A DNA stretch of 24,000 nt from Clostridia bacterium (GCA_045646385.1 JAZRKQ010000016.1:96336-120335), one strand, 5' to 3'. Shown: positions 3,654 through 22,249, counted from the stretch's first letter. The notes: a model not told the origin generated them from the sequence alone. A program made the numbers and translations.

Positions 3654-3670
3654 ATTTAACGTAGTCTTTT

Positions 3671-3754: not shown

Positions 3755-3804
3755 TTTTTTTATATCTAAATGACTGTTTCATCTCATCATGGCAGTCTGA
3801 GTAT

Positions 3805-3892: not shown

Positions 3893-3894
3893 TG

Positions 3895-4000: not shown

Positions 4001-4013
4001 TATGTAGAATAAA

Positions 4014-4280
4014 GGCTTTGACGGAGAGTACATATTCATTTGAACTTTAGAGAGAAGTGGCGGTTGGTGCGAGTCATAAGGGATGGAATATGTTTGTAGC
4101 TTCTGAGCCGGGAGGAAGAAAGCAATTTTGTTAGTAGAACCTTCCCGTGATTGCTGCGTTAATGCATATGGGTTGTTTGACCCTGAGAGTGGCGCATATT
4201 TTGCGCAATTTGAGTGGTACCGCGGGTGAATTACACTCGTCTCAAAGATTTTAACTATACTTTGAGGCGAGATTTTTTTT
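4014..4280 (+). promoter_or_regulatory. T-box riboswitch leader (tRNA-sensing transcription attenuator), probable GUA (Val) specifier
   Basis: Stem I: GA/K-turn motif, AGUA (4027-4030), AG bulge AGAGAGAA (4049-4056) and distal loop GGUUGGUGCGAG (4062-4073). Stem II spans 4110-4147 and contains AGUAGA. Stem III is GCGCA/UGCGC (4192-4206). The T-box motif AAUUUGAGUGGUACCGCG is at 4207-4224. A 12-bp terminator (4236-4247/4260-4271) plus U8 competes with an antiterminator. Confidence 0.85.
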
Positions 4281-4308
4281 GCCTCATGATAAAGGAGAAA
4301 TTTTTAAT

Positions 4309-6600
4309 ATGGAAAACTCAAGGGATATTAATCTCAAAATCAAGGAAATGGCTGAACGTATCCGTGAACTGCGTGAGATTGAGAACTATACCACGCAGGA
4401 AATGGCCGAAAAAACAGGTATTTCTGTTGAAGAGTACATAAAATGCGAAAATGGCGAATCAGACCTCAACTTTGCTTTTATTTATCGTTGTGCGGCTGCA
4501 TTAAGAGTAAACGTTACAGATATTATAGAAGGTTATAGCCCTAACCTTAAATCTTATACTGTTACACGTGCAGGTGCAGGGCAACAAATTGCCAAAGCAC
4601 ATGGTATGATTTATCATAACCTTGCTTATGCATTTAAGAATCGTATTGCTGAACCTCTTTTTGTTGTAAGCGCATATGATGAAGACGCGCAAAATAAAGA
4701 TATCGAACTTACAACACATTCAGGGCAGGAATGTGATATTGTTATTGAGGGACACCTTATGGTACAGATAGGCGAGCATAAGGAAGTGCTCGGCCCTGGC
4801 GACAGTATCTATTATAATAGCGACACTCCACACGGTATGATTGCTGTTAACGGAAAAGAATGTAAGTTTTATGCTATAGTTTTAAGAGCGGATGTAGATG
4901 GAGCAGATACACCTTCTGATGTTGTTTCTACTGAACAGATTATAGGTTCTATCCACAGAGATACAAAAGACAGAATCTACCATAACTTTATTGATGTGGT
5001 TGAAGATGATAAAGGCACACCGATTTCTATAGAATTTAAAAATACTGAAAAGTTCAACTTTGCATTTGACCTTGTTGACGAACTTTCAAGACGTGAGCCC
5101 GACAAACTTGCTATGCTTCATATCGGTAAAGACAAAACCGAAAGACGTTTTACTTTTACTGATATGAGAAAGGCTTCAAGTCAATGTGCTAATTATTTTG
5201 CTTCACTCGGAATTAAAAAGGGTGACAGAGTAATGCTTATTTTGAAACGCCATTATCAATTCTGGATAGCAATGCTCGGTTTAAATAAACTTGGTGCAAT
5301 TGCAATTCCTGCAGTTGACCAACTTCACGAACACGACCTTGAGTATAGATTTAATTCTGCGGGCGTAAGTGCTATTGTATGTACATCGGATGGAGAAGTT
5401 GCAAATTATGTTGATATTGCAGCAGAAAAATGTCCATCACTTATAAATAAAATGATTGTAGGAGGAAGTAAAGAGGGTTGGAGAAACTTTGACGAAGAGT
5501 ATAAGCGTTTTAGTTCGCACTTTGACCGTACTGAAGACTCTCCGTGTGGCGATGATACTATGCTTATGTATTTCACATCCGGTACATCAGGTTATCCAAA
5601 AATTGCTACGCACAATTATAAATATCCTTTAGGACATTTCCATACTGCTAAATATTGGCACAATGTTGATCCTGATGGTTTACATTTTACAATTTCAGAT
5701 ACCGGTTGGGCAAAGGCGATGTGGGGTAAACTTTATGGACAATGGCTTTGTGAGGCTGCAACATTTGTATATGACTTTGACCGTTTTGATGCATCTGAAA
5801 TATTACCAATGTTTGCAAAACACCATATTACAACTTTCTGTGCACCTCCAACAATGCTCCGTATGATGATTAAGCAAGATATTTCAAAATATGATTTTTC
5901 ATCTGTTCGTCATATGACAACGGCAGGCGAGGCTCTTAATCCGGAGGTTTATCGTCAGTTTGAAAAGGCAACTGGTCTTCAGATTAAAGAAGGTTTTGGA
6001 CAGACAGAGAGCACGATGATTATAGGTAATCTTGTTGGCAAACCTCATAAAATTGGTGCTATGGGTAAACCGGCACCTATATACAAGGTTGAACTTCATG
6101 ATTCTGATGGTAATCCTGTTAAAACAAGTGAGTCAGGTGAAATTGTTATCAATGTTAAAGACGGAGCACCTTGTGGTTTGTTTACCGGATATTATGGCGA
6201 TGAGGAAAAAACAAAAGAAGTATGGCACGATGGATATTACCATACCGGTGACGTTGCATGGTGCGATGAAGACGGATTCTATTGGTATGTAGGACGTATA
6301 GATGATGTTATTAAGTCTTCCGGATACCGCATTGGTCCTTTTGAAATTGAAAGTGTTATTATGGAATTACCATATGTACTTGAGTGCGGTGTTTCTGCCG
6401 TTCCTGATGAAGTAAGAGGTCAAATCGTTAAAGCTAGCATTGTTTTGGTAAACGGTACAGAGCCTACTGAGGAACTTAAAAAAGAGATACAGAATTATGT
6501 AAAAGATAAAACCGCGCCGTATAAATATCCAAGAATTGTTGAATTTAAAGACAGTTTACCAAAAACAGTAAGCGGAAAAATCCAAAGAAATAAACTTTAA
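4309..6600 (+). CDS. Fusion protein: XRE-family HTH, cupin domain and AMP-forming (ACSM/MACS-type) acyl-CoA synthetase
   Basis: ATG at 4309 follows AAGGAG. The ORF-track TTG at 4279 lies in the terminator U-tract and is rejected. In ORF-track numbering, the HTH covers about aa 22-80, the cupin about aa 115-203 (HSGQE...GPGDSIYYNSDTPHG) and the linker aa 204-232. Ligase motifs are FTSGTSGYPK, GFGQTES, YHTGD, GRIDDVIKSSGYRIGPFEIE and SGKIQR. Confidence 0.85.
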   Translation: MENSRDINLKIKEMAERIRELREIENYTTQEMAEKTGISVEEYIKCENGESDLNFAFIYRCAAALRVNVTDIIEGYSPNLKSYTVTRAGAGQQIAKAHGMIYHNLAYAFKNRIAEPLFVVSAYDEDAQNKDIELTTHSGQECDIVIEGHLMVQIGEHKEVLGPGDSIYYNSDTPHGMIAVNGKECKFYAIVLRADVDGADTPSDVVSTEQIIGSIHRDTKDRIYHNFIDVVEDDKGTPISIEFKNTEKFNFAFDLVDELSRREPDKLAMLHIGKDKTERRFTFTDMRKASSQCANYFASLGIKKGDRVMLILKRHYQFWIAMLGLNKLGAIAIPAVDQLHEHDLEYRFNSAGVSAIVCTSDGEVANYVDIAAEKCPSLINKMIVGGSKEGWRNFDEEYKRFSSHFDRTEDSPCGDDTMLMYFTSGTSGYPKIATHNYKYPLGHFHTAKYWHNVDPDGLHFTISDTGWAKAMWGKLYGQWLCEAATFVYDFDRFDASEILPMFAKHHITTFCAPPTMLRMMIKQDISKYDFSSVRHMTTAGEALNPEVYRQFEKATGLQIKEGFGQTESTMIIGNLVGKPHKIGAMGKPAPIYKVELHDSDGNPVKTSESGEIVINVKDGAPCGLFTGYYGDEEKTKEVWHDGYYHTGDVAWCDEDGFYWYVGRIDDVIKSSGYRIGPFEIESVIMELPYVLECGVSAVPDEVRGQIVKASIVLVNGTEPTEELKKEIQNYVKDKTAPYKYPRIVEFKDSLPKTVSGKIQRNKL

Positions 6601-10376: not shown

Positions 10377-10463
10377 CCTGTAGTATGATTTGTTTATAAT
10401 ACACAACTGAGAATATTTCTCGAAAAAAAATAAATGTAAATATTACAAAAAACGCATAAATGC

Positions 10464-10492
10464 TTGACAAAACGATATGTATATGATATCAT
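10464..10492 (+). promoter_or_regulatory. Sigma-A promoter (extended -10) upstream of the small ORF and the long operon
   Basis: TTGACA (10464-10469), a 17-nt spacer, then TATCAT (10487-10492) with TG at 10484-10485. Confidence 0.6.
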
Positions 10493-10522
10493 AAATGTAT
10501 ATTTTTGAAAGGGGATGTACGT

Positions 10523-10804
10523 ATGTCGAATTTTGTTAAACATTTTGCTAATATGTTTACCAAAGATGCGTCTGTAAGTGCGTGTTCCTCTTGTGGTGCA
10601 GTTAATACTGCTACCAATTTTAATTTTATTAAATTTGCAGACACTGTTTTTTCAGTGTCTGTTTTGTTATGTTCTTTAATTTCCATTATTGGTTTTGCTT
10701 TGCTTGGTCTAATTTATGTGATTATACTGGCAAACATTATAATTATTAACATTATATGTCTGAAAAAAATATTCTATAAAAAGCGAAACATTATTAAATT
10801 CTAA
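10523..10804 (+). CDS. Hypothetical small membrane protein (93 aa)
   Basis: ATG at 10523 follows GAAAGGGGA. The N-terminal half is soluble and carries a CSSCG motif. The C-terminal half is hydrophobic and very Ile-rich. No family was recognised. Confidence 0.45.
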   Translation: MSNFVKHFANMFTKDASVSACSSCGAVNTATNFNFIKFADTVFSVSVLLCSLISIIGFALLGLIYVIILANIIIINIICLKKIFYKKRNIIKF

Positions 10805-10833
10805 TTTTTCGATATAAACAATCCAAGTTTAAG

Positions 10834-10868
10834 ACGGTTTTGCTTTTTATAGGCGGAGCCGTTTTTTA
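10834..10868 (+). terminator. Rho-independent terminator/attenuator-like hairpin directly upstream of the operon
   Basis: ACGGTTTTGC (10834-10843) pairs with GCGGAGCCGT (10853-10862). The stem is 10 bp including 3 G-U pairs, the loop is 9 nt, and a T6 run follows. It ends 29 nt before the next start codon. Confidence 0.55.
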
Positions 10869-10896
10869 ATAAAAGAGGAAAAGAGGAGAAAATTGT

Positions 10897-12312
10897 ATGA
10901 CAGAAATCAAAATTGCCGACATTACTTTAAGAGAAAAATCTTTTTGTGAGGTTGATGCTCTAAGTTTTAAAGAAAAAACAGAGATTGCCAAACAACTGGA
11001 TAATCTAAAAGTTGATATAATTGAAACAGCGCCAATCACAAGTGGCAAAAAAGATATTCTGTTCTTACACACAATTTCTTCAATTGTAAAAAACAGTATA
11101 ATTTCTTGCCCGACAGGTCTTTCTGAGGAATCTGTTTTAGAGGCTTATGATGCTATTAAAAATTCTGTTAAGTCAAGACTTAATATTATTGTTCCTGTTT
11201 CAACTGTGCAAATGGAATATATATGCCACAAAAAGCCTGATAAAGTTCTTGATATGATTGCAAATCTTACCAAATACGCAAGTTCGCTTTGTAAAGATGT
11301 TGAAGTGTCATTGGCAGACAGCACCAGAGCTGAAAGTGAATTTTTATATAAAGCGATTTCTGCTGCTATAGGAAATGGAGCAAAGGTCATTACCTTGTGT
11401 GATTCTGCCGGAATTATGATGCCGTCTGAATTTGAACAGTACATAAATACTATTTATGATAATGTTCCTGAACTTAAAGAAGTGGCTCTTTCAGTTGAGT
11501 GCTCAAACGAAATGAACATGGCTACCGCATGTGCTATTGCCTGCATTAATGCCGGTGCTACACAAATAAAGGTTGCCACAGGCTCAAATTCATGCCCATC
11601 ACTTAAATCTACTGCTAATGTATTCAGAATTAAATCTGATGTTTTAAAAATTTCTACTTTAATGAATATGACGGTTCTGGATAAAGCGGTTGCCCGTATT
11701 TCTTCTATTGCTGATGGCAATATTGGTAATGCAACTGTGTATAATACTGAAGAACATAAAAACTATTTTGAAGATACAAAATTCAGTGCTGATGACGATA
11801 TTAAAACTATTGAAAAAGCGCTTGTAACTATGGGATATGAATTACCTGCAGAAGAACTTAAAAATGTATATGACGAGTTTTCAAAAATCGCTGTAAAAAA
11901 ATCTGTTGGTATTAAAGAACTTGACGCAATTGTTGCAAGTACTGCTATGCAAGTTGCACCTACATATAAAGTTAAAAGTTATGTTATTAACAGCGGTAAC
12001 ATTTTAACGCCTACTGCTAATATAGAACTTACTAAAAGTGGTGATGTACTTCACGGTTTTTCTATAGGTGATGGCCCGATTGATGCTGCGTTTATGGCTA
12101 TAGAGCAGATTACAGGTCACCATTACGAACTTGATGATTTCCAGATACAATCTGTAACTCGCGGACGAGAGGCAATGGCAGAGAGTATTGTAAAACTCAG
12201 AAATGATGGTAGACTTTATTCCGGAAAAGGCACGTCTACAGATATTGTAGGCGCAAGCATTAATGCCTATATCAACGCATTGAATAAAATTTGCTTTGAG
12301 GAGGAGATATAA
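10897..12312 (+). CDS. LeuA/2-isopropylmalate-synthase-like protein with degenerate catalytic motifs and an intact LeuA_dimer regulatory domain
   Basis: The HMGL-like TIM-barrel N-terminal half aligns with LeuA (EKTEIAKQLDNLKVDIIE). The N-terminal DTTLRDGEQ motif reads DITLREKSF, and the HxH metal motif reads ECSNE (nt 11497-11511). The C-terminal GDGPIDAAFMAIE...DIVGASINAYINALNK is well conserved. Confidence 0.8.
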   Translation: MTEIKIADITLREKSFCEVDALSFKEKTEIAKQLDNLKVDIIETAPITSGKKDILFLHTISSIVKNSIISCPTGLSEESVLEAYDAIKNSVKSRLNIIVPVSTVQMEYICHKKPDKVLDMIANLTKYASSLCKDVEVSLADSTRAESEFLYKAISAAIGNGAKVITLCDSAGIMMPSEFEQYINTIYDNVPELKEVALSVECSNEMNMATACAIACINAGATQIKVATGSNSCPSLKSTANVFRIKSDVLKISTLMNMTVLDKAVARISSIADGNIGNATVYNTEEHKNYFEDTKFSADDDIKTIEKALVTMGYELPAEELKNVYDEFSKIAVKKSVGIKELDAIVASTAMQVAPTYKVKSYVINSGNILTPTANIELTKSGDVLHGFSIGDGPIDAAFMAIEQITGHHYELDDFQIQSVTRGREAMAESIVKLRNDGRLYSGKGTSTDIVGASINAYINALNKICFEEEI

Positions 12313-14768
12313 TGAATTTATCTTTTTCTACCAATAAATGGACAGATTTTAAAATTAGTGATTTCATTAAAATTGCTGCTGAATACAAATTTAACGGTAT
12401 AGAAATTCATGATGTTAATGAAATCAACGAGGAAAGTCTTTCCGATACTTATCACTCGCTTATTGAACATGGTATAAAAATACCGTGTATAGATATGGTG
12501 AACGATGTTTCAATTGATTCTTCAGAACTTTATAATGAATTTGAAAGGTTAAAAGAAGTAGTTGCTAAACTGCGAATCCCTTATATAAGATTGAAATCAA
12601 GCGGAGATGCAGCGGAATTTATAAAAAAAGTTTTGCCTTATGCAAAAGAAAATGGAATTACTTTGCTTGTTGAAACAGTGGGGGAATATGCAGATACTTC
12701 AAAACTCCGTACTTTGCTTGAAAGTTTTGCAGACGATAACCTTGCTGCATTGTGGGATTTTCATTATCCTTACCGTGTTAACGGCGAAGCGCCTGAAGAC
12801 ACTATCAGAAATCTTGGGGCATATGTTAAGCATATCCATATAAAAGACTCTGAAAGTTTAGCAGAGCATAGCCTGATAGGCGAGGGCAGTCTTCCTGTTG
12901 ATGAATTTATTAATGCATTAAGAAGTATAAATTTTAACGGATTTGTTTCGATAGAATGGAATCCTGACTGGGTATCAGAGGTTGATGATATAGACATTAT
13001 TTTCCCGCACTTTGTAAGTTTTATGTCAAGATATAAAGATCCTTCAAGAGCGAAAAAAGTTCTTTATGACAATAAAACAAAAACAGGCAAGTTTGTATGG
13101 AAAAAAGATGCATTGGTTGAAAAGACATTTTCACAAGTCCTTGATACTATGGCGGAGCAGTTTCCTGACCAGTACGCAATAAAATACACAACGCTTGATT
13201 ATACAAGAACATATTCGCAATTTCGTGATGATGTTGATAACTTTGCTAAAAGTTTGCTTGCTTTGGGTGTAAAAAAAGGAAGTCACGTTGCTGTTTGGGC
13301 AACAAATGTTCCTCAATGGTATATTGCATTCTGGGCAACAACAAAAATTGGTGCTGTTTTAGTTACAGTAAATACCGCGTATAAAATCCATGAAGCAGAG
13401 TATCTACTCAGACAGTCAGACACACACACACTGATTTTGATTGAAGGATACAGAGATTCAAATTACTCACAGATTATTGCAGAACTCTGTCCTGAACTTG
13501 AAACTAAAGAAGCAGATGCGCCATTACATGCTAAGAGATTACCTTTCCTTAGAAATGTAATTACCGTCGGATATAAGCAAAAGGGTTGCCTTACATGGGA
13601 AGCTGCACTTTCCAAAGGTGAAAAAGTACATATTGATGAAGTTAAGCGTGCTGCCGCCGCTGTTGATGTTCATGATGTATGTAATATGCAGTATACATCA
13701 GGTACTACAGGTTTTCCAAAGGGTGTAATGCTTACACATTATAATATTGTAAATGATGGTAAATGTATTGGCGATAGAATGGACCTTTCAACTGCCGACC
13801 GAATGATGATTCAAGTTCCTATGTTACATTGCTTCGGAATGGTGTTGGCGATGACGGCTTCTATGACGCATGGCGCTACAATTTTCCCGTTGCCATACTT
13901 TACTCCAAAGCCTGCGTTAGCTTGTATAAATCAGGAACATATTACAGCGTTTCACGGTGTTCCTACAATGTTTATTGCAATGCTTGAACATCCTGATTTT
14001 GAAAAAACCGATTTCAGTCATATGAGAACTGGTATTATGGCTGGCTCTCCTTGTCCTGAGCCTGTTATGAATCAGGTTATAGAGCAGATGAATATGCGTG
14101 AAATTACAATTGTGTATGGTCAGACAGAGGCTTCACCCGGTTGTACAATGAGTTCTACTGATGATTCTGTTGAAGTTCGTGTTTCTACTGTAGGCAGAGC
14201 GCTTCCTGAAATCGAATGCCGAATTGTAGATCCTGAAACAAACGAGGAACTTCCTGATAATACTATCGGCGAATTTGTTGCCAGAGGATATAATATTATG
14301 AAAGGGTATTACAAAATGCCCGAAGCAACGGCTGCTGCTATTGATAGTGACGGTTGGCTACATACAGGTGATTTGGCCCTCAAAACTCCCGAAGGAAACT
14401 ATCGAATTACAGGCCGTTTAAAAGATATGATTATTCGCGGAGGAGAAAATATTTATCCTAAAGAAATTGAAGAATTTATTTACACGCATCCCAAAGTTAG
14501 CGATGTTCAGGTAATTGGTGTTCCTGATGAACAGTATGGCGAGGAAATTATGGCTTGTATTATTCCTAAAGAGGGAGAGACCATTACCATTGATGAAATG
14601 AAAGAATATATTCTTTCACATATGGCTAAGCACAAAGTGCCTAAATACATTGATTTTGTTGATGCTTTCCCGACAAATGCTGCGGGAAAAATCCTCAAAT
14701 ATAAAATGCGTGAAGATGCTGTCGAAAGACTTAAAATTAAAAAAGTTGACGGCATTGTAGCAGAATAA
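12312..14768 (+). CDS. Fusion protein: xylose-isomerase-like TIM barrel (sugar-phosphate isomerase/epimerase family) and AMP-forming acyl-CoA ligase (FadD/ACSF2-like)
   Basis: The ATG overlaps the upstream stop (TAATG). Aa 1-240 resemble the AP_endonuc_2/XylA-like TIM barrel (LLVETVG, HIHIKD, VSIEWN). Aa ~266-818 carry the ligase motifs YTSGTTGFPKG, YGQTEASP, WLHTGD, GRLKDMIIRGGENIYPKEIE and AGKILK. Confidence 0.85.
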   Translation: MNLSFSTNKWTDFKISDFIKIAAEYKFNGIEIHDVNEINEESLSDTYHSLIEHGIKIPCIDMVNDVSIDSSELYNEFERLKEVVAKLRIPYIRLKSSGDAAEFIKKVLPYAKENGITLLVETVGEYADTSKLRTLLESFADDNLAALWDFHYPYRVNGEAPEDTIRNLGAYVKHIHIKDSESLAEHSLIGEGSLPVDEFINALRSINFNGFVSIEWNPDWVSEVDDIDIIFPHFVSFMSRYKDPSRAKKVLYDNKTKTGKFVWKKDALVEKTFSQVLDTMAEQFPDQYAIKYTTLDYTRTYSQFRDDVDNFAKSLLALGVKKGSHVAVWATNVPQWYIAFWATTKIGAVLVTVNTAYKIHEAEYLLRQSDTHTLILIEGYRDSNYSQIIAELCPELETKEADAPLHAKRLPFLRNVITVGYKQKGCLTWEAALSKGEKVHIDEVKRAAAAVDVHDVCNMQYTSGTTGFPKGVMLTHYNIVNDGKCIGDRMDLSTADRMMIQVPMLHCFGMVLAMTASMTHGATIFPLPYFTPKPALACINQEHITAFHGVPTMFIAMLEHPDFEKTDFSHMRTGIMAGSPCPEPVMNQVIEQMNMREITIVYGQTEASPGCTMSSTDDSVEVRVSTVGRALPEIECRIVDPETNEELPDNTIGEFVARGYNIMKGYYKMPEATAAAIDSDGWLHTGDLALKTPEGNYRITGRLKDMIIRGGENIYPKEIEEFIYTHPKVSDVQVIGVPDEQYGEEIMACIIPKEGETITIDEMKEYILSHMAKHKVPKYIDFVDAFPTNAAGKILKYKMREDAVERLKIKKVDGIVAE

Positions 14769-14780
14769 GGAGATATAAAA

Positions 14781-15839
14781 ATGGATATTAAAATTACAAA
14801 AACAACTGCATCAAAAGCAATTCCTACAGAAAATTTGGGATTTGGCAAAAGTTTTACTGACCATATGTTTATTGCTGATTACTCAAGAGATAAAGGTTGG
14901 TATAATGCCAGAATCGTTCCGTTTGCAAATTTGAGTATGCATCCTGCGGCAACCGTTTTTCATTACGGTGCTGAAATTTTCGAAGGATTAAAGGCATACA
15001 GAAGAGCAGATGGTAAAGTTCAACTTTTCAGACCTATTGAAAATGTAAGAAGAATGAACAATTCTGCTGAACGTTTAAGACTTCCTCAAATGCCGGAAGA
15101 AGATATGCTTCAGGCAATTATGGAACTTGTTAAAGTTGAAGAAGCATGGGTGCCTCATAACGAGGGTGAATCTCTTTACATTCGTCCATTCCTTTTTGGT
15201 AATGACGAACATTTAGGCGTTCATTCAATCGTGAACGCAACATTTGTAATCATTTGCTCACCAAGCGGAAGTTATTATGCTGAAGGTATAAATCCCGTTA
15301 AAATTATGATTGAAGAAGACGATGTAAGGGCTGTTCGTGGCGGTACTGGATTTGCTAAATGCGGTGGTAACTATGCTGCGGCTAACCGTGCCGGTGAAAA
15401 AGCAGAGCAGTTAGGCTATACACAGGTTCTTTGGCTCGATGGTGTTGAAAGAAAGTACATAGAAGAAGTAGGCGCTATGAATGTAATGTTTAAAATTGAT
15501 GGTGAAATTGTAACTCCCGCACTTACTGGTTCAATTCTTCCGGGTATAACGAGAAAATCATGTATCGAAGTATTAAAGAACGAGGGATATACAGTTTCTG
15601 AAAGACTTCTCTCTATTGATGAACTGACAGATGCAATGGAAAATGGCAAGTTAGAAGAGGCTTGGGGTTGCGGAACCGCTGCTGTTGTATCACCTATTGG
15701 ACAGTTGTTCTATAAAGGTAAAACTTATACTATCAACAATAACGAAATTGGTACTGTTACTCAGAATCTTTATAATAAACTTACCGGTATTCAGTGGGGT
15801 AAAGTTGAGGATACATTCGGATGGACAGTAGAGATTTAA
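14781..15839 (+). CDS. ilvE: Branched-chain amino acid aminotransferase
   Basis: 352 aa. Class IV BCAT hallmarks: FGKSFTDHMF, HYGAEIFEGLKAYR, FRP.ENV.RMN.SA.RL.LP and the PLP lysine context GTGFAKCGGNYAA. An AAGGAG RBS is present. Confidence 0.9.
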   Translation: MDIKITKTTASKAIPTENLGFGKSFTDHMFIADYSRDKGWYNARIVPFANLSMHPAATVFHYGAEIFEGLKAYRRADGKVQLFRPIENVRRMNNSAERLRLPQMPEEDMLQAIMELVKVEEAWVPHNEGESLYIRPFLFGNDEHLGVHSIVNATFVIICSPSGSYYAEGINPVKIMIEEDDVRAVRGGTGFAKCGGNYAAANRAGEKAEQLGYTQVLWLDGVERKYIEEVGAMNVMFKIDGEIVTPALTGSILPGITRKSCIEVLKNEGYTVSERLLSIDELTDAMENGKLEEAWGCGTAAVVSPIGQLFYKGKTYTINNNEIGTVTQNLYNKLTGIQWGKVEDTFGWTVEI

Positions 15840-16501
15840 AACGTGTTACCATTTTCGCAGGGCATTACGGAAGCGGAAAAACAAATATTGCCGTAAATTA
15901 TGCTTTAAGTATTTCTGCCTCTGGAAAACCTGTTGCTATTGCAGATTTGGATATTGTAAATCCGTATTTCAGGACGAAAGATTCTGAAAAAATATTATCA
16001 GCAAATAATATACGTCTTATATCTTCACCATATGCTAATACAAATGTTGATACCCCTGCATTACCGGCAGAGGCATATTCTGTAATACATGATAAAAATG
16101 TATATTCGGTAATAGATGTTGGTGGTGATGACAGAGGTGCATTGGCTCTTGGCAGATATATGCCTGCAATACGCGAACAAAACAATTACGAAATGATATT
16201 TGTTATAAACAAATACAGATATCTTACATCTACCCCCGAAGAAACTGTTCAAATAATGCGTGAGATTGAAATTGCTGCAGGTGCAAAATTTACATCTATT
16301 GTTAACAATTCAAATCTTGGAGAAGAAACTACTGTCGATGACGTGATTTCTTCTGTAAAATACGCTGAAAAAGTTGCTGAAATAACAGGGTTGAAAATTA
16401 AAATGACCACTGTTAAATCTGATTTAATTTCTAAATTGAATAACAAGATAGACAATCTTTTCCCGATTGAACTTTATGTAAGGCAATCGTGGCTAAAATA
16501 A
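15821..16501 (+). CDS. SIMIBI-like P-loop NTPase of unknown role
   Basis: Deviant Walker A GHYGSGKT, followed by ADLDIVNPYF and a Walker-B-like VIDVGGDD. The ATG lies 9 nt after GAGGA and overlaps the ilvE 3' end by 19 nt. Confidence 0.65.
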   Translation: MDSRDLKRVTIFAGHYGSGKTNIAVNYALSISASGKPVAIADLDIVNPYFRTKDSEKILSANNIRLISSPYANTNVDTPALPAEAYSVIHDKNVYSVIDVGGDDRGALALGRYMPAIREQNNYEMIFVINKYRYLTSTPEETVQIMREIEIAAGAKFTSIVNNSNLGEETTVDDVISSVKYAEKVAEITGLKIKMTTVKSDLISKLNNKIDNLFPIELYVRQSWLK

Positions 16502-16514
16502 GGAGGAAAAATAA

Positions 16515-16718
16515 ATGGCTAAAGTTACTTTTGACGAAAGCATTTGCAAAGGCTGCGGACTTTGCGTAGGTGCTTGTCCCAAAAAAATTGTTGCTTTGAA
16601 AGATGAACTGAATGCCAAAGGATATCATCCTGCCGGCGTTACCGATATGGAAAGTTGCATTGGTTGTGCGTTCTGCGCTACAATGTGTCCCGATTGTGTA
16701 ATTACAGTTGAAAAATAA
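16515..16718 (+). CDS. 2-oxoacid:ferredoxin oxidoreductase delta subunit (2x[4Fe-4S] ferredoxin)
   Basis: 67 aa with two CxxCxxCxxxCP motifs (CKGCGLCVGACP, CIGCAFCATMCP). AAGGAGG RBS. It lies immediately upstream of the alpha/beta/gamma subunits. Confidence 0.85.
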   Translation: MAKVTFDESICKGCGLCVGACPKKIVALKDELNAKGYHPAGVTDMESCIGCAFCATMCPDCVITVEK

Positions 16719-16731
16719 GGAGGAGAGAATT

Positions 16732-17802
16732 TTGAGCGAAAAAGTATTGATGAAAGGCAATGAAGCAATGGCAGAAGCCGCTATCATGGCCGGATGTAAA
16801 CATTATTTCGGATACCCCATTACTCCTCAGACAGAGGTTGCTGCATACATGGCAAAAAGACTTCCTAAAGTAGATGGTGGTGTATTCTTACAGGCAGAGA
16901 GCGAAATTGCTGCAATTAATATGGTAATTGGTGTTGCCGCTACAGGAAAAAGAGTTATGACCTCTTCTTCAAGTCCAGGTATTTCTTTAAAGAGTGAAGG
17001 TATTTCTTACCTTGCTGGTTGCGACTTACCTGCACTTATTGTAAACGTACAGCGTGGTGGTCCCGGTCTTGGCGGTATTCAGCCTTCACAGTCTGATTAT
17101 TTTCAGGCTACCAAGGGTGGGGGACACGGTGATTTTCATTTAATCGTTGTTGCACCTTCTTCTGTTCAGGAAATGGTTGATTTAACATCTAAATGTTTTG
17201 ATTTGGCAGATAAATACAGAATGCCTGCAATGATTCTTGCAGACGGCACTATGGGTCAGATGATGGAACCTGTTTCTTTAGAAGCAGCAGATGTTAAATC
17301 CGTTGATAAACCTTGGGCACTTACAGGTACTAAATGTGAACGTGAGCCAAATATTGTTAACTCACTTTTCTTAAAGCCTGATGAATTGGAGCAGTTTAAC
17401 ATTGAAAGATTCAAACGCTACAAAGAGATTGAAGCAAACGAAGTTATGTATGAAGAATATATGATGGATGATGCTGAAATTTGTATTGTTGCTTTTGGTG
17501 TTGCAGCAAGAGTATCTCAGAATGCTATTGATGAAGCACGCAAAAAAGGTATTAAAGTTGGTATGATAAGACCTATTACATTGTGGCCTTTCCCGAAAGA
17601 TGTTCTTAATAAGGCGGCAGATAAAGTAAAAGCATTTATTTCTGTTGAACTTAATATGGGACAGATGCTTGAAGATATTGAACTTGCTACACGCTGCAAA
17701 AAACCTGTACTTCTTTGCAGCAGAACAGGCGGTATGATTCACACAACTGAAAACATTCTTGATTCTATAGAAGAAGCACAGAAAATCGGAGGTGATAAAT
17801 AA
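16732..17802 (+). CDS. 2-oxoacid:ferredoxin oxidoreductase alpha subunit
   Basis: The N-terminus KGNEAMAEAAIMAGCKHYFGYPITPQTE is typical of Kor/Vor/Por alpha subunits. TTG at 16732, 6 nt after AAGGAGGAG, is preferred over the ORF-track start at 16708. ATG at 16750 is an alternative. Confidence 0.85.
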   Translation: MSEKVLMKGNEAMAEAAIMAGCKHYFGYPITPQTEVAAYMAKRLPKVDGGVFLQAESEIAAINMVIGVAATGKRVMTSSSSPGISLKSEGISYLAGCDLPALIVNVQRGGPGLGGIQPSQSDYFQATKGGGHGDFHLIVVAPSSVQEMVDLTSKCFDLADKYRMPAMILADGTMGQMMEPVSLEAADVKSVDKPWALTGTKCEREPNIVNSLFLKPDELEQFNIERFKRYKEIEANEVMYEEYMMDDAEICIVAFGVAARVSQNAIDEARKKGIKVGMIRPITLWPFPKDVLNKAADKVKAFISVELNMGQMLEDIELATRCKKPVLLCSRTGGMIHTTENILDSIEEAQKIGGDK

Positions 17803-18554
17803 TGGTAGTATTTGAAAAACCTAAAGCACTTACAGAAAACACTTTGCATTATTGTCCCGGTTGTACACATGGTATTATTCATCGTTTAGTTGCAGAAGCA
17901 ATTGATGAATTAGGTATTAGAGGAAGAACAATCGGTGTTGCATCTGTTGGATGCTCAGTATTTACATATAATTACTTTAATGTTGATATGGTTCAGGCAG
18001 CACACGGCAGAGCGCCTGCTGTTGCTACCGGTGTTAAACGCTCAGATAGTAATAACATTGTATTTACATATCAGGGCGATGGCGATTTGGCTGCTATTGG
18101 CACTGCTGAAACAGTTCACTCTGCTGCAAGAGGCGAAAATATTACCGTTATTTTTGTAAATAATGCAATTTACGGTATGACTGGCGGTCAGATGGCTCCG
18201 ACAACTCTGCCCGGACAGGTAACACAGACTTCGCCGTACGGAAGAGATGTCGACAAAGTTGGTTACCCCATTAAAGTTTGTGAAATGCTTTCTAAGGTTG
18301 ACGGTGCTACTTATCTTGAAAGAGTTGCTGTCAATAATGTTAAAAATATTAAAAAAGCAAAAGAAGCAATTAAAAAGGCTTTCCAGAATCAGATTGAAGG
18401 CAAAGGATTTTCTTTAGTAGAAGTACTTTCTACTTGTCCTACAAACTGGGGTAAAACTCCTGAAGATTCTCTTAAATGGCTTGAAAGCGAAATGATGCCT
18501 TACTATCCATTGGGAGTTTACAAGGACAAATACGCAGACGGGGAGGCAAAATAA
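17802..18554 (+). CDS. 2-oxoacid:ferredoxin oxidoreductase beta subunit (TPP-binding)
   Basis: YCPGCTHG cysteine motif and GDGD...NN TPP-binding region. The start overlaps the alpha-subunit stop (TAATG). Confidence 0.9.
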   Translation: MVVFEKPKALTENTLHYCPGCTHGIIHRLVAEAIDELGIRGRTIGVASVGCSVFTYNYFNVDMVQAAHGRAPAVATGVKRSDSNNIVFTYQGDGDLAAIGTAETVHSAARGENITVIFVNNAIYGMTGGQMAPTTLPGQVTQTSPYGRDVDKVGYPIKVCEMLSKVDGATYLERVAVNNVKNIKKAKEAIKKAFQNQIEGKGFSLVEVLSTCPTNWGKTPEDSLKWLESEMMPYYPLGVYKDKYADGEAK

Positions 18555-19084
18555 TGAGTAAACAGATGTTAATTGCCGGATTTGGCGGACAGGGAGTTCT
18601 TTTCGCAGGAAAATTTATTGCTTATGCAGGACTCATTGAAGAAAAAGAAGTTAGTTGGTTGCCATCTTACGGTCCGGAAATGCGTGGAGGTACCGCAAAC
18701 TGCAGCGTAATTTTGAGCGATACCAAAGTAGGTTCCCCAATCGTTGATAAACCTGATATTTTAGTTGCTTTAAACGCACCGTCACTTGATAAATATGAAA
18801 ATGATGTTGTTTCAGGAGGTCATATTTTTGTTGATAGTTCTCTCATTGACAGAAAGGTTAACCGTACTGATGTAAATGTGCACTATATTCCTGCATCTAA
18901 AATGGCGTCGGACGAAAATTTAAGTGGCCTTGCAAATATGATTATGATGGGACATATGATTAAACATAGCGATGTAATTGAATATGATAGCATTGAAAAA
19001 TCTATGGCCAAAGTAGTTTCTGCAAAAAAACAAAATCTTTTTGATGCTAATAAAAAGGCTGTGGAACTGGGATATAACTATTAA
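18554..19084 (+). CDS. 2-oxoacid:ferredoxin oxidoreductase gamma subunit
   Basis: N-terminal [10 protein letters not shown] motif and SYGPEMRGG, typical of gamma subunits. The start overlaps the beta-subunit stop (TAATG). Confidence 0.9.
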
Positions 19085-19098
19085 GGAGGGGACGCCTT

Positions 19099-19650
19099 GT
19101 GAATAACCAGATTAAAGATATCGGTATGCGTCTGGCTTTTTTGCGCGAAGATATGGAACTTACTACTGCACAAATGGCAGAGAAATTAGATGTTGATGAG
19201 GCAACATATATTTCTTATGAAAAAGGCGAGATGGATTTTTCATTTAGTTTTATTTATAATGCTGCTGATCATCTTGGTGTTGATGTTCTGGATTTAATCA
19301 GCGGTGATGCTCCTACACTTTCTATGTGTACAATGGTTGAAAAAGGGAATGGATATTCAGTTAAAAGAGAGCATGAGTATGATTATAAGCATCTTGCTTA
19401 CACCTTCAGAAATAAAAAGGCTGAACCATTTCTTGTAACAATAACCCCTGACGAAAAACCGCCTGTTATGAAATGTCATGAAGGACAGGAATTTAACTAC
19501 GTGCTTTCCGGAAAGATGAAATTCTTTATAGGAGATATTTCATATGAACTTTCCAAAGGTGATAGCGTTTATTTTGATTCCGGAATACCTCACGCGGAAG
19601 TTGCCCTTGGTGATAAACAGGCTCAGTTTATCGCCGTAGTAATTAAATAA
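19099..19650 (+). CDS. XRE-family HTH transcriptional regulator with C-terminal cupin domain
   Basis: 183 aa. It aligns over its whole length with aa ~20-203 of the fusion at 4309-6600 (MAEK...FIY.A...L.V.V.D.I; KHLAY.F.N..AEPF; GDSVYFDSGIPH). GTG start lies 7 nt after AAGGAGGGG. Confidence 0.85.
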   Translation: MNNQIKDIGMRLAFLREDMELTTAQMAEKLDVDEATYISYEKGEMDFSFSFIYNAADHLGVDVLDLISGDAPTLSMCTMVEKGNGYSVKREHEYDYKHLAYTFRNKKAEPFLVTITPDEKPPVMKCHEGQEFNYVLSGKMKFFIGDISYELSKGDSVYFDSGIPHAEVALGDKQAQFIAVVIK

Positions 19651-19665
19651 CTTTCGGAGGCTTGA

Positions 19666-21363
19666 TTGAAAATGGCAATATATGAAAAATTTGTTGGCGC
19701 ATCAAGAGATGATTTTATCTCTCTTGAAGACGCACAACGAAATTATAACCTTACATATGAAGAAGATTTTAACTTTGCATATGATGTCATTGATGAACTT
19801 GGTACTACCAAGCCCGACAAATTGGCATTATTGTATTTATCTTCTTCAGGTGAAGAAAAACGCTTTACATTCCGTGATATGATGCTTATGTCTAATAAGG
19901 CTGCGAATTATTTTAAGTATATGGGAATCAAAAAAGGCGATAGAGTTTTGCTGGTTATGAAGCGTAGTTATTATTTCTGGATTTGTGTTTTAGCACTTCA
20001 CAAAATTGGTGCTATTATGATTCAAGCAACAAATATGCTTAAGGCTAAGGATTATGTTTATCGTTGTAATGCTGCCAAAATCAATGCTGTAATTTTAACC
20101 GGCGATGGTATGGAAACTGAATATTTTGATGAGGGCGGTGACCAATACGAGACCGTTACAAAAAAATTTGTATTAGGTCATAAAAAGGCAGGACATGATT
20201 GGATAGATTTTGAAACGGGCTTTGAAATGGCAAGTGATCAATGGGAAAAGCCCCGCGGTAAAGATAAACCTATGGCTGACGATACTATGCTTATGGCCTT
20301 TTCATCTGGTACTACCGGTTATCCCAAAATTATTTCTCATAACTTCAAATATCCATTAGGGCATATTATGACTGGTGTATTTTGGCATAGAGTTGTAGAT
20401 GGTGGTTTGCATTTTACAATTTCTGATACCGGATGGCTTAAATCTCTTTGGGGTAAATTCTACGGTCAATGGTTTGGTGAATCTGCAATTTTGGTATATG
20501 ATTTTGAAAAGTTTGATGGTGCTGATATACTTTCTAAACTTGAAAAATATAAAGTTACTACTTTCTGTGTTCCGCCTACCATGTATCGCATGATGTTGCA
20601 AAACGATGTTAGTAAATATGATTTATCATCACTTACTCATTGCTGTTCTGCAGGTGAAGCATTAAACCCTGAGATCTTCAATAAGTGGCTCGATGCTACA
20701 GGTTTAAAAATTTATGAGGGTTTTGGACAGACAGAAACCGCTGTTTGTATTGCTACTATTGAACCTTGGACAGAACCTATCCCCGGTACAATGGGATTCC
20801 CCGTTCCCGGTTTTGATGTTCATATTCTCGATGAAAATAACAAATTCGTACAACGTGGTACAACCGGCGAAATATGCATACGTGTACTTAGCGCAAAACG
20901 TAAATCGTGTGGCCTTTTAGACAGTTACAACTTAAATAGCGAGGAAACAAAAAAGGCCATGTACGGTGGATTTTATCATACCGGTGATACTGCTTACCGT
21001 GATGAAAAAGGAATGTTTAGATATGTGGGTAGAAATGACGATGTAATTAAGTCATCTGGTTACCGCATTGGTCCTTTTGAGATTGAAAGTGTTATGTTGG
21101 AACATCCTGCAGTTATGGAAGTTGCAGTCACTGGTGTTCCTGATCCGGTTCGTGGGTTTGCAGTTAAGGCAACGGTGGTTCTTAGCGATGATTATGAGGG
21201 CAGTGATGAACTTACCAAGGAACTTCAATCATACGTTAAAACTAATACTGCTCCCTATAAATATCCAAGAATTGTGGAATATGTTAAAGAACTTCCAAAA
21301 ACTTTTAATGGCAAAATCCGCAGAGCAGAAATCCGTAATAAAGATAATGAACCCAAATTATAA
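19666..21363 (+). CDS. AMP-forming (ACSM/MACS-type) acyl-CoA synthetase
   Basis: Motifs FSSGTTGYPK, GFGQTET, YHTGD, GRNDDVIKSSGYRIGPFEIE and NGKIRR. It is a paralog of the ligase part of 4309-6600, with roughly half the residues identical by eye. The start is TTG at 19666 or ATG at 19672, after GGAGG. Confidence 0.9.
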   Translation: MKMAIYEKFVGASRDDFISLEDAQRNYNLTYEEDFNFAYDVIDELGTTKPDKLALLYLSSSGEEKRFTFRDMMLMSNKAANYFKYMGIKKGDRVLLVMKRSYYFWICVLALHKIGAIMIQATNMLKAKDYVYRCNAAKINAVILTGDGMETEYFDEGGDQYETVTKKFVLGHKKAGHDWIDFETGFEMASDQWEKPRGKDKPMADDTMLMAFSSGTTGYPKIISHNFKYPLGHIMTGVFWHRVVDGGLHFTISDTGWLKSLWGKFYGQWFGESAILVYDFEKFDGADILSKLEKYKVTTFCVPPTMYRMMLQNDVSKYDLSSLTHCCSAGEALNPEIFNKWLDATGLKIYEGFGQTETAVCIATIEPWTEPIPGTMGFPVPGFDVHILDENNKFVQRGTTGEICIRVLSAKRKSCGLLDSYNLNSEETKKAMYGGFYHTGDTAYRDEKGMFRYVGRNDDVIKSSGYRIGPFEIESVMLEHPAVMEVAVTGVPDPVRGFAVKATVVLSDDYEGSDELTKELQSYVKTNTAPYKYPRIVEYVKELPKTFNGKIRRAEIRNKDNEPKL

Positions 21364-21382: not shown

Positions 21383-22249
21383 ATGACAGATGTAAAAATA
21401 ACTGATGTGCGTGTTCATCCCGGTGATAGCGGTTTCTTAGTTGATGATGGCGAAACATCAATACTATATGATTCAGGTTTTGCTTTTACCGGAAGCGGAA
21501 TGGTTAATAAAATCAAAGAACAACTTGGAAACAGAAAATTAGATTACATATTCCTTACACATTCTCATTACGATCATGTGCTTGGCGCTCTTTATGCAAT
21601 GAGGCAATGGCCTGATGCAAAAGTAATTGCAGGTGAATATGCTGCAAAGATTTTTTGCAAACCATCTGCAAAATCTGTTATGCGTAAACTTGACCAAAAG
21701 TTTGCAACTACCTGTGGAGCAGAACCGTATGAAGATATAATTGACGAACTCAGAGTTGACATTACCGTCAACGATGGTGATATTATAAATGCCGGAAAAA
21801 TGACATATAAAGTTGTTGATTTACCGGGACACACTAAATGTTCTGTTGGTTTTTATCTTGTTGGGAAAAAACTTTTACTAAGTACCGAAACTCTCGGTAT
21901 ATATGCCGGAAACGAAATTATATTGCCATCATTTTTAGTGGGTTATGAGATGACACTTAACTCTATTAAAAAAGTGGAAAATATGGATGTTGAGAATATT
22001 TTGGTGCCGCATTACGGTTTGCTAGACAGAGAACACACAAAAGTGTTTTTGAAAAAAGCAAAAGAAGTTGCACATATAACTGCAGAAGATTTTTCTGCAA
22101 GGATAAAAAAAGGGCAGACAGATGAGGAATTAATAGAATATTTCAAATCATTATATTATCACGATTACATTAGGGTTATTTACCCTATAGATGCTATTGA
22201 ACTTAATACAAGTTGTATGATTAACTTAATAAAACGAGAGTGTTTATAA
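21383..22249 (+). CDS. MBL-fold metallo-hydrolase
   Basis: 288 aa with the canonical HSHYDH (HxHxDH) zinc motif, followed by GHT and a later His. GAAGGTG RBS. It is the last gene before the terminator. Confidence 0.85.
   Translation: MTDVKITDVRVHPGDSGFLVDDGETSILYDSGFAFTGSGMVNKIKEQLGNRKLDYIFLTHSHYDHVLGALYAMRQWPDAKVIAGEYAAKIFCKPSAKSVMRKLDQKFATTCGAEPYEDIIDELRVDITVNDGDIINAGKMTYKVVDLPGHTKCSVGFYLVGKKLLLSTETLGIYAGNEIILPSFLVGYEMTLNSIKKVENMDVENILVPHYGLLDREHTKVFLKKAKEVAHITAEDFSARIKKGQTDEELIEYFKSLYYHDYIRVIYPIDAIELNTSCMINLIKRECL

Follow-up and report, generated by a model that had tools for sequence, protein, structure and literature searches.

A TIM barrel-acyl-CoA ligase fusion of gut bacteria, paired with a degenerate 2-isopropylmalate synthase homolog, is a candidate leucine-arm ligase of branched-chain acid carboxylation

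Background

What would a sugar-isomerase-like barrel contribute to an acyl-CoA ligase, and which acid might such a ligase activate? The question is raised by a gene of a Clostridia bacterium (GCA_045646385.1 JAZRKQ010000016.1:96336-120335; this whole stretch of 24,000 nucleotides is referred to as the window), in which an earlier note had seen an unusual fusion of two enzyme domains and a possible case of substrate channeling.

Results

Architecture and reality of the fusion

Positions 12312-14768 of the plus strand constitute a single uninterrupted ORF for an 818-aa protein, which begins with a xylose-isomerase-like TIM barrel and continues through a conserved linker into a complete adenylate-forming ligase. 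The anatomy given in the earlier note is borne out by the Pfam domains, the motifs and the unbroken frame:

12312..13031 (aa 1-240), plus strand: N-terminal, xylose-isomerase-like TIM barrel of the fusion (PF01261 match, AlphaFold2 domain model, Foldseek)
13032..13121 (aa 241-270), plus strand: conserved inter-domain linker (column conservation, invariant residues)
13122..14768 (aa 271-818), plus strand: FadD/ACSF2-type adenylate-forming acyl-CoA ligase domain (Pfam, core motifs, catalytic K793)

Such a gene could be an artefact of assembly or gene calling that joins two separate genes. However, relatives of the fusion occur in at least 594 species-representative genomes of Clostridia, Lentisphaeria and a Thermoguttaceae, and the family turns up often in MAGs from gut and rumen; the same three domains, in proteins of 814-830 aa, recur in all 120 of the best protein clusters, which stem from independent sources. 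From at least 594 stretches encoding a relative, 80 loci were kept for comparison, two of them cut by contig ends, and in none of the 80 is the gene split at the TIM-ligase junction into the two ORFs that the earlier note had named as the mark of an error. We found nothing in favor of an artefact apart from one MAG (L063) with an internal stop, which lies at aa 320, within the ligase. With hundreds of genomes, spread over three phyla, sharing the architecture, and with the linker conserved, the probability of an artefact is negligible, and this reading is already refuted by conservation across assemblies. The fusion family is a widespread but unstudied gut-bacterial enzyme, unusual solely in being uncharacterized and not in being rare.

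The linker contains four invariant residues (N254, G259, W263 and K264), and its mean column conservation (0.71) exceeds that of the TIM domain (0.64); the ligase half reaches 0.88, the TIM half evolving much faster. The AlphaFold model of the full-length fusion is poor (pLDDT 65.9, pTM 0.43).

The ligase domain

By its sequence features the C-terminal half classifies as an acyl-CoA ligase of the ANL superfamily (class I, adenylate-forming). Pfam recovers AMP-binding at aa 279-667 (309.6 bits, 3.6e-92, gathering score 29.9) and AMP-binding_C at aa 718-793 (65.3 bits, 9.7e-18, gathering score 24.5). All core motifs are there, namely TSGTTGFPKG (462-471), YGQTE (602-606), HTGD (684-687), GRLKD (701-705) and AGKILK (791-796), the last supplying K793, and they are invariant across 42 aligned members, orthologs being 75-87% identical; the ligase is thus complete, catalytic lysine included, as first described. 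Its top NCBIfam match is NF009233/PRK12583 ('fatty acid CoA ligase family protein'; 697.2 bits over aa 265-810), the cutoff of which (832) is missed, so that PRK12583 is the nearest family and the fusion is not a member of it by the curated threshold. The top PDB match is 8weu/8wev (about 1e-75), and no characterized close homolog was identified in the NCBIfam and PDB comparisons. The earlier assignment to a subfamily separate from that of the window's two other ligases also stands: identity to these is 23-25%, and they have MbcS, rather than PRK12583, as their top NCBIfam match.

The TIM barrel

The N-terminal domain matches AP_endonuc_2 (PF01261) at aa 20-218 with 70 bits (Pfam cutoff 31.1), and its AlphaFold2 model (pLDDT 93.8, pTM 0.90) finds ketose 3-epimerases as the top Foldseek matches (TM 0.75-0.81, 15-22% identity), with Art22, UlaE and AsbF also among the matches. 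None of the NCBIfam equivalog cutoffs for specific PF01261 enzymes (FrlC, IolO, hydroxypyruvate isomerase, D-psicose 3-epimerase, OtnI) is reached, the top score being that for FrlC (39.4 bits against a cutoff of 305) and the others lower. The closest standalone relatives of the barrel are found in sugar or polyol gene contexts, without a ligase.

The metal ligands picked out in the earlier note are present in the window protein, with E121 in LLVETVG, H174, H176 and D179 in HIHIKD and E215 in SIEWN. On alignment, E121-D149-H176-E215 corresponds to the E-D-H-E metal tetrad of ketose 3-epimerases and is intact in the window; the tetrad residues are kept in at least 96% of 194 members, as are the further polar residues E31, D61, R93, E159, D179 and E191, and by species the tetrad is conserved in about 90%. 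About seven species depart from this (L038, L055, L071, L072, L073, L075 and L076): these have lost two or more ligands, typically through D149N/H together with E215V/I, and retain the fusion, the LeuA-like partner gene described below and its leucine T-box. E121K is further seen in a subclade of partial sequences.

The earlier note suggested that the barrel is an active metal-dependent isomerase, epimerase or dehydratase that hands a modified keto or hydroxy acid to the ligase, which would make the fusion a bifunctional channeling enzyme. The retention of the tetrad and of the other polar residues is consistent with this, as are the likeness to ketose 3-epimerases, which enolize beside a carbonyl, and the conserved linker, which suggests a fixed geometry between the TIM and ligase domains. 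However, the species that have lost ligands retain the module and the Leu T-box, one subclade has E121K, the TIM half diverges far more quickly than the ligase, the standalone relatives are sugar-context enzymes, and the route from isovalerate to leucine considered below has no step requiring such chemistry. Hence, channeling from barrel to ligase is not supported, and we regard the bifunctional enzyme as unlikely.

A degenerate LeuA-like partner and its T-box leaders

The two most informative features of these loci, an obligate, degenerate LeuA-like partner and a leucine T-box in related loci, were missed by the earlier note. The partner is encoded immediately before the fusion, its stop codon overlapping the ATG of the latter (TAATG):

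10897..12312, plus strand: LeuA-like partner, a degenerate 2-isopropylmalate synthase (IPMS) homolog of 471 aa (HMGL-like barrel plus LeuA_dimer)

In each of the 73 loci with sufficient DNA, which span three phyla, the fusion is immediately preceded by a LeuA-like gene of the same orientation; the junction is mostly an overlap of 4 nt or 1 nt or a gap of 2-3 nt, and look-ups starting from the partner gave the same gene order in three of three cases. Although Pfam recovers both HMGL-like (3.4e-38) and LeuA_dimer (1.5e-31), the partner falls under the cutoff of every NCBIfam equivalog for IPMS, citramalate synthase and homocitrate synthase (top score 300.4 bits against 532), and its orthologs are labeled 'hypothetical protein' at NCBI. 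A comparison with the IPMS of N. meningitidis (3rmj) showed that: 1) LRDGEQ has become LREKSF; 2) SCEDA has become SLADS; 3) HCHND has become ECSNE; and 4) GLGERAGN is lost. Across 70 partner orthologs, other and varying residues stand where IPMS has its Arg-Asp, catalytic Glu and His-x-His. LeuA_dimer is the best-kept part of the protein (0.777 against 0.585 for the barrel), and the match found to a regulatory domain of solved structure (3f6g, E = 0.027) is weak. Judged by these replacements, the partner looks like a pseudoenzyme.

T-boxes were found in 27 of the 64 leaders upstream of the LeuA-like gene in related loci, seven of them scoring 103-122 bits with Rfam RF00230 (gathering score 93). 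The specifier columns of these seven read CUC (leucine) followed by a purine, and the CTC triplet is invariant in all 27, flanked by helices that vary. A CUC T-box also heads the ilv-leu operon of Bacillus. No T-box was found before the window's own LeuA-like gene, the Leu T-box of the gene pair being seen only in more distant clades (L036-L080). In many species the pair is thus predicted, from these leaders, to be induced by leucine shortage.

Neighboring genes

The remaining genes of interest in the window, all on the plus strand, are:

4009-4247, plus strand: T-box leader with specifier GUA (valine) (RF00230 100.3 bits, gathering score 93)
4279-6600, plus strand: fused HTH-cupin::MbcS-like ligase (Pfam HTH, Cupin_2, AMP-binding)
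14781..15839, plus strand: IlvE, branched-chain amino acid aminotransferase (NF009897 478.5 bits, cutoff 307)
15821..16501, plus strand: CbiA/ParA-like P-loop protein (Pfam CbiA 8.1e-06; weak matches to Fe-S cluster carrier families)
16515..19084, plus strand: 2-oxoisovalerate:ferredoxin oxidoreductase (VOR), four subunits (Pfam POR_N, PFOR_II, TPP_enzyme_C, POR)
16515-16718, plus strand: VOR delta ferredoxin subunit, 67 aa (two CxxCxxCxxxCP motifs)
16708-17802, plus strand: VorB (NF005507 544.6 bits, cutoff 399)
17802-18554, plus strand: VOR TPP subunit (Pfam)
18554-19084, plus strand: VOR gamma subunit (Pfam)
19099-19650, plus strand: split HTH-cupin regulator (Pfam)
19666-21363, plus strand: MbcS-like ligase (top NCBIfam match MbcS, 421 bits, missing the cutoff of 850)

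IlvE, which catalyzes the last step from 2-oxo acid to amino acid, is syntenic with the fusion in many loci and often follows it directly, and the CbiA/ParA-like P-loop gene precedes VOR in 26 loci. In two loci (L044 and L058) one CUC T-box heads a run of P-loop, VorBAC, IlvE, LeuA-like and fusion genes, the fusion being the operon's only ligase. In Lentisphaeria the gene pair adjoins a single-chain PFOR-type enzyme and an HTH-cupin::ligase. HTH-cupin::MbcS-like ligases are found behind AUC (Ile) or GUA (Val) T-boxes beside VOR and IlvE, and in 19 of 20 cases the Ile and Val specifiers follow two sister clades of ligases. The window ligase at 4279-6600 groups with the Val-specifier clade, and the T-box and ligase unit at 4009..6600 serves as the valine arm in the pathway proposed below. 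The ligase at 19666-21363 belongs to a separate clade without a T-box, and together with the HTH-cupin regulator (19099..21363) it is probably a further branched-chain acid arm.

Discussion

We propose, with roughly even confidence, that the fusion supplies the ligase, probably one for isovalerate, of the leucine arm in a reductive-carboxylation route from branched-chain acids to amino acids, and that a dead IPMS serves it as a leucine sensor. The ligase domain would convert isovalerate and ATP to isovaleryl-CoA, releasing AMP and PPi; the clustered VOR would carboxylate isovaleryl-CoA reductively to 4-methyl-2-oxopentanoate, and IlvE would transaminate this to leucine. Translational coupling links the ligase to the LeuA-like protein, and the two would act as an obligate pair. 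The LeuA-like protein, having lost the IPMS site and kept a leucine-binding-type domain, might sense leucine and throttle the ATP-costly first step; that it binds leucine we infer from the conservation of LeuA_dimer alone. The N-terminal barrel would serve mainly as a docking or ligand-binding module for this regulation and not as a channeling catalyst. Rumen bacteria were reportedly found by Allison and Bryant in the 1960s to carboxylate isovalerate to leucine. As the fusion always stands behind a dead copy of a leucine-pathway enzyme and appears to be induced by leucine shortage, activation of isovalerate for leucine synthesis is its most likely role. Further, purified MbcS of S. aureus activates 2-methylbutyrate and isobutyrate, isovalerate being a very poor substrate (PMC10026030), which leaves the leucine arm to a different ligase.

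Counting against isovalerate, a plain isovalerate ligase would need neither a TIM barrel with a conserved metal tetrad nor the Amidohydro_2 gene (PF04909, 2.4e-34) that is present in 44 of the 80 loci. The conserved tetrad and this gene may point to further chemistry, or else to another leucine-related compound as the substrate. The pseudo-IPMS, the fusion and Amidohydro_2 might form a short, leucine-controlled salvage pathway that takes some other leucine-related compound, rather than free isovalerate, to isovaleryl-CoA or 4-methyl-2-oxopentanoate, with the barrel and Amidohydro_2 providing the isomerization and the hydrolysis or decarboxylation. In favor of such a pathway, Amidohydro_2 sits no more than 1.3 kb downstream of the fusion in 37 loci and belongs to the same Leu-T-box unit, some compact operons consist of four genes (LeuA-like, fusion, IlvE and Amidohydro_2) with no VOR nearby, and the Val and Ile arms require no such additional genes. 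Nevertheless, Amidohydro_2 is absent from the window and from 36 of the 80 loci, the TIM ligands are gone in some species that still have it, and no candidate substrate can be named, which leaves salvage rather improbable.

Under leucine scarcity the ligase could alternatively make the isovaleryl-CoA primer of iso-odd branched-chain fatty acids, a role like that of MbcS and distinct from leucine synthesis. Leucine is the usual source of this primer, and induction by leucine shortage would also fit a shortage of primer. MbcS itself sets a precedent for activating branched acids for lipid synthesis (PMC10026030). Against this, the Leu T-box of L044 and L058 drives VOR and IlvE along with the fusion, many loci have IlvE as the next gene after the fusion, and the module is also present in Gram-negative Lentisphaeria and a Thermoguttaceae. 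The arrangement of VOR and IlvE with the fusion fits amino-acid synthesis better, and we give lipid priming only a slight chance.

A more specific form of the isovalerate reading can be put forward tentatively: a catalytically dead IPMS relic that still has its leucine-sensing domain may have been repurposed as a trans-acting allosteric subunit, which docks on the TIM barrel and gates the initial, ATP-consuming reaction of a route from isovalerate that replaces the classical leucine pathway. If true, this relic would represent a kind of regulatory partner new to adenylate-forming enzymes, and the system would provide the first gene-level account of how branched-chain fatty acids are taken up, amino acid by amino acid, into protein in abundant uncultured gut and rumen Clostridia.

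Comparison with known systems

A scheme in which each amino acid has a dedicated ligase under a T-box of its own specifier, and in which the leucine arm uses a ligase of the present architecture, is apparently undescribed in the literature that was searched. Its components have known counterparts. Like the fusion, MbcS of S. aureus is an ATP-dependent ANL ligase, and it converts exogenous short branched-chain carboxylic acids to CoA thioesters (PMC10026030). However, it barely uses isovalerate and serves lipid synthesis, whereas the fusion belongs to another, FadD/ACSF2-like subfamily (23-25% identical to the MbcS-like ligases of the window), has an N-terminal TIM barrel and an obligate LeuA-like partner, and is tied to leucine rather than to isoleucine or valine. 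That partner has the layout of LeuA (2-isopropylmalate synthase), a DRE-TIM barrel followed by LeuA_dimer, and keeps the regulatory domain strongly; it differs in the replaced catalytic Arg-Asp, Glu and His-x-His, in lying under every NCBIfam IPMS cutoff and in always being paired with the ligase and not with leuBCD, and any regulation by it would act in trans on another enzyme. The barrel of the fusion shares its fold and the E-D-H-E tetrad with the ketose 3-epimerases (D-psicose/D-tagatose 3-epimerase, e.g. 2hk0) and their PF01261 kin (FrlC, IolO, hydroxypyruvate isomerase), from which it is set apart by low identity (15-22%), fusion to a ligase, the lack of sugar genes nearby and the loss of ligands in some orthologs. 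It is classical physiology that rumen anaerobes make valine, isoleucine and leucine from isobutyrate, 2-methylbutyrate and isovalerate, respectively, by reductive carboxylation. The loci described here hold a matching gene set of ligases, a ferredoxin-dependent 2-oxoacid oxidoreductase and IlvE, and their hosts are likewise gut and rumen anaerobes.

Architecture and distribution of the fusion protein

The gene at 12312-14768 is an uninterrupted open reading frame encoding an 818-aa protein, in which a xylose-isomerase-like TIM barrel is followed by an acyl-CoA ligase with the complete set of core motifs of adenylate-forming enzymes.

Features of the fusion protein (12312-14768, forward strand)
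aa 20-218: xylose-isomerase-like TIM barrel, PF01261 (Pfam, 70 bits against a cutoff of 31.1)
aa 279-667: AMP-binding domain (Pfam, 309.6 bits)
aa 462-471: ligase core motif TSGTTGFPKG
aa 602-606: ligase core motif YGQTE
aa 684-687: ligase core motif HTGD
aa 701-705: ligase core motif GRLKD
aa 718-793: AMP-binding_C domain (Pfam)
aa 791-796: ligase core motif AGKILK

The ligase shares only 23-25% identity with the two other ligases of the window. Its closest NCBIfam family is PRK12583 (697 bits, below the cutoff of 832), while the top match of the other two is MbcS, the Staphylococcus aureus methylbutyryl-CoA synthetase (421-440 bits, below the cutoff of 850). As Pfam domains, motifs, identities and NCBIfam matches agree, the earlier note described the sequence correctly as a TIM barrel joined to a complete ligase of a separate subfamily. 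The 30-aa linker has a conservation of 0.71, with N254, G259, W263 and K264 invariant. An AlphaFold2 model of the full-length protein was poor (pLDDT 65.9, pTM 0.43), its input alignment containing only sequences at least 72% identical.

The fusion might have been an assembly artefact, in which case related genomes would carry two ORFs with a stop near the junction, as the earlier note pointed out. All of the best 120 protein clusters from NCBI, ENA, JGI and Logan (72-98% identity, 814-830 aa) share this three-domain layout, however, and a scan of one genome per species recovered 594 stretches with a relative of the fusion. Among the best 80 of these 594 loci none is split at the TIM-ligase boundary: one metagenome-assembled genome (MAG) has a stop at aa 320, contig ends cut two, and the remainder are single ORFs. 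Given an architecture shared across clusters and species, and no locus split at the junction, we reject the artefact. These 80 loci belong to Clostridia (Oscillospiraceae, Acutalibacteraceae, Ruminococcaceae), Lentisphaeria/Victivallales and one member of the Thermoguttaceae, and every one comes from a gut or rumen MAG. Full-length fusions of greater divergence were also found, with 37-43% identity in the TIM part. Of the distant relatives in the representative library, P0261 (776 aa) lacks the ligase P-loop and most TIM ligands, and P0215 and P0145 keep the ligase motifs with altered TIM ligands. The region in the window is flanked by the sporulation genes spoIVA and spoIIIAA, and the host is therefore a spore-forming Firmicute.

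A degenerate 2-isopropylmalate synthase accompanies the fusion

Immediately upstream on the same strand lies a gene (10897-12312, 471 aa) for a LeuA-like protein with an HMGL-like barrel and a LeuA_dimer domain; its stop codon overlaps the ATG of the fusion (TAATG), with a ribosome-binding site GAGGAG. In each of the 73 related loci whose upstream DNA is long enough, those of Lentisphaeria and Thermoguttaceae among them, a homolog occupies this position, mostly with a 4-nt or 1-nt overlap or a 2-3 nt gap at the junction, and the identical gene order was recovered in all three look-ups begun from partner proteins. The pair recurs at 65-71% identity in loci L022, L029, L032, L034, L037 and L077 of Lentisphaeria and in L039 of Thermoguttaceae; as these are Gram-negative phyla sharing gut habitats, this suggests horizontal transfer of the pair as one unit. 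Downstream of the pair, Lentisphaeria carry a 1166-aa single-chain PFOR-type enzyme, in place of the split 2-oxoisovalerate:ferredoxin oxidoreductase (VOR), and an HTH-cupin::ligase.

The partner scores below all NCBIfam cutoffs for 2-isopropylmalate synthase (IPMS), citramalate synthase and homocitrate synthase, and its orthologs are labelled "hypothetical" at NCBI. A comparison with the Neisseria meningitidis IPMS (3rmj) revealed the following replacements:

IPMS motifs and their equivalents in the partner
LRDGEQ in 3rmj: LREKSF in the window partner
SCEDA in 3rmj: SLADS in the window partner
HCHND in 3rmj: ECSNE in the window partner
GLGERAGN in 3rmj: absent from the window partner

Across 70 orthologs the catalytic positions are both changed and variable: the arginine is present in 37 of 70 and the aspartate in none, and the two histidine positions are mostly occupied by E/Q/L/M and S/E/A/D. 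The C-terminal regulatory domain has a conservation of 0.777 with 38 near-invariant sites, against 0.585 for the barrel. Because the catalytic positions vary and conservation is concentrated in the regulatory domain, the simplest reading of these sequences is that the partner would be a pseudoenzyme kept for its sensor domain.

Charging of tRNA and three proposed arms

A motif scan found a T-box directly 5' of the unit running from the LeuA-like gene to the fusion in 27 of the 64 loci with enough leader. Rfam confirmed 7 of these 27, at 103-122 bits (gathering score 93), and in the specifier columns of the seven a purine comes after CUC, which encodes leucine. All 27 leaders have the CTC triplet without exception, while the flanking helices vary. 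In L044 and L058, two related loci, a single CUC T-box, which at 81 bits (E = 5e-18) stays below gathering, precedes an operon of P-loop protein, VorBAC, the branched-chain aminotransferase IlvE, LeuA-like protein and fusion. Leucine T-box control is thus a feature of the L036-L080 clades. No T-box precedes the LeuA-like gene of the window itself, and the gap at 10377-10896 holds no credible T-box or other riboswitch, its sole features being a small ORF of CxxC/membrane type and a hairpin. This ORF (10524-10804) has a good ribosome-binding site, a CxxC motif with a hydrophobic membrane-like tail behind it and a weak match to the zinc-finger family TIGR04104; the hairpin, followed by a T-run, lies at about 10826-10868, just 5' of the LeuA-like gene.

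The HTH-cupin::MbcS-like ligases of these loci are likewise found behind T-box leaders, and the window has both a fused and a split form of them.

HTH-cupin/MbcS-like ligase modules of the window
4009-4247: T-box leader with specifier GUA (valine; Rfam, 100.3 bits)
4279-6600, directly 3' of this leader: 773-aa protein in which an XRE-type HTH, a cupin and an MbcS-like ligase are fused
19099-19650 and 19666-21363: split version of the same three modules, as HTH-cupin and ligase respectively

The leaders in other loci score 74-78 bits. Specifiers are AUC (Ile) or GUA (Val), and the tree of the ligases places the two kinds in sister clades, the specifier fitting in all 11 cases of the Ile clade and in 8 of 9 of the Val clade. 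The split ligase at 19666-21363 belongs to a separate clade that lacks a T-box, and is a candidate for the isoleucine arm. To our knowledge, control by tRNA charging and possession of a DNA-binding domain are unusual for an acyl-CoA ligase. Upstream of the 4009 T-box are two tRNA-Ser genes (anticodons UGA and GCU, 3670-3893), and the window starts with permease and ATPase genes of a branched-chain amino acid ABC transporter (318-1998).

VOR, with all four subunits, and IlvE are also encoded in the window, and both exceed curated NCBIfam cutoffs. The 67-aa ORF at 16515-16718, between the P-loop gene and VorB, has two CxxCxxCxxxCP motifs and is the ferredoxin-type delta subunit of VOR; it is shorter than usual ORF length filters. 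The CbiA/ParA-like P-loop protein (15821-16501) shows weak similarity to Fe-S cluster carriers, lies 5' of VOR in 26 loci, opens the operon behind the Leu T-box in L044 and L058, and may be a VOR maturation factor. An Amidohydro_2 (PF04909) gene is present in 44 of the best 80 of 594 loci, in 37 of them just 3' of the fusion, and is absent from the window. Its product is about 267 aa, and the gene follows the fusion or the fusion and IlvE within the leucine T-box unit (e.g. L044, 12529-13332; L163, 13003-13788). The operon of the window ends with an MBL-fold hydrolase gene (21383-22249) with weak matches that include glyoxalase II, a thioester hydrolase; its product might act on acyl-CoA or related thioesters.

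The TIM barrel

Modelled alone, the TIM domain has a confident fold (pLDDT 93.8, pTM 0.90), closest among solved structures to ketose 3-epimerases, Art22, UlaE and AsbF (TM 0.75-0.81, 15-22% identity). Its sequence matches PDB entries and specific NCBIfam families (FrlC, IolO, hydroxypyruvate isomerase and others) only weakly, with scores far below cutoff. The metal ligands, whose loss on alignment the earlier note had considered, are intact in the window protein: the epimerase tetrad corresponds to E121, D149, H176 and E215, and along with several further polar residues is kept in at least 96% of 194 full-length members. A catalytic reading is tempered by low conservation and by ligand loss in about seven species. 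Mean column conservation is 0.64 in the TIM half against 0.88 in the ligase half, and identity to the window protein across related loci is 37-68% against 75-87%. The seven or so species lack two or more ligands jointly, typically by D149N/H/E with E215V/I (the L076 set differs), and still retain the fusion, the partner gene and the leucine T-box. The proposal that the barrel modifies an acid and hands it to the ligase hence finds no support, given a faster-diverging TIM half and species that keep the module despite ligand loss. Roles in PPi hydrolysis or acyl-adenylate proofreading were considered and rejected for want of support.

Queried alone, the TIM domain retrieved almost exclusively copies of the fusion truncated by contig ends, and no close standalone relatives. 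A search for the context of more distant standalone relatives yielded 80 environmental loci. The closest of these relatives (about 30-35% identity) have aldo/keto reductases, Gfo/Idh/MocA oxidoreductases and sugar ABC permeases as neighbours and no ligase in the vicinity. In light of these neighbours, the TIM domain seems to derive from enzymes of the sugar type; this context tells of its origin and not of its present role.

Functional implications

Protein fermentation in the gut and rumen yields isobutyrate, 2-methylbutyrate and isovalerate as major products, which serve fibre-degrading anaerobes as growth factors; the carboxylation of these acids to valine, isoleucine and leucine is physiology sixty years old. 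We propose that each branched acid would follow this classical route, being converted to its acyl-CoA, then to the 2-oxo acid and finally to the amino acid, and that every amino acid would have a ligase of its own. In this scheme the TIM fusion would be the ligase of the leucine arm, and hence probably an isovalerate ligase. The purified MbcS of S. aureus acts on 2-methylbutyrate and isobutyrate, isovalerate being a very poor substrate (PMC10026030). Gene set, T-boxes and MbcS specificity fit the classical rumen carboxylation route. The opposite, catabolic direction, a fermentation of leucine to isovalerate, is rejected because induction by uncharged tRNA-Leu and AMP-forming ligases fit synthesis.

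The whole statement, that the fusion is a leucine-linked, probably isovalerate, acyl-CoA ligase acting with a dead but sensor-retaining IPMS homolog in a pathway from branched acids to amino acids, we consider evenly poised between right and wrong; the leucine link and the pairing with the partner are much more secure, while both the substrate and the regulatory mechanism are deduced. In the literature searched we found no paper describing the TIM barrel::ligase architecture, an IPMS pseudoenzyme, the combination of isovalerate, leucine and a T-box, or the genes activating each branched acid and their control. If confirmed, these proposals would allow auxotrophy for branched-chain amino acids, and cross-feeding, to be predicted better from the genomes of hundreds of uncultured Oscillospiraceae, Acutalibacteraceae and Lentisphaeria, and would offer a clear example of a biosynthetic enzyme turned sensor. 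The observations suggest a design with a single ligase per amino acid, each induced through a dedicated tRNA-sensing riboswitch; the one for leucine has an unprecedented architecture and a putative pseudoenzyme as partner. The arms differ in their choice of module: the leucine arm would use the TIM barrel with the putative pseudo-IPMS, whereas the other arms use the HTH-cupin module.
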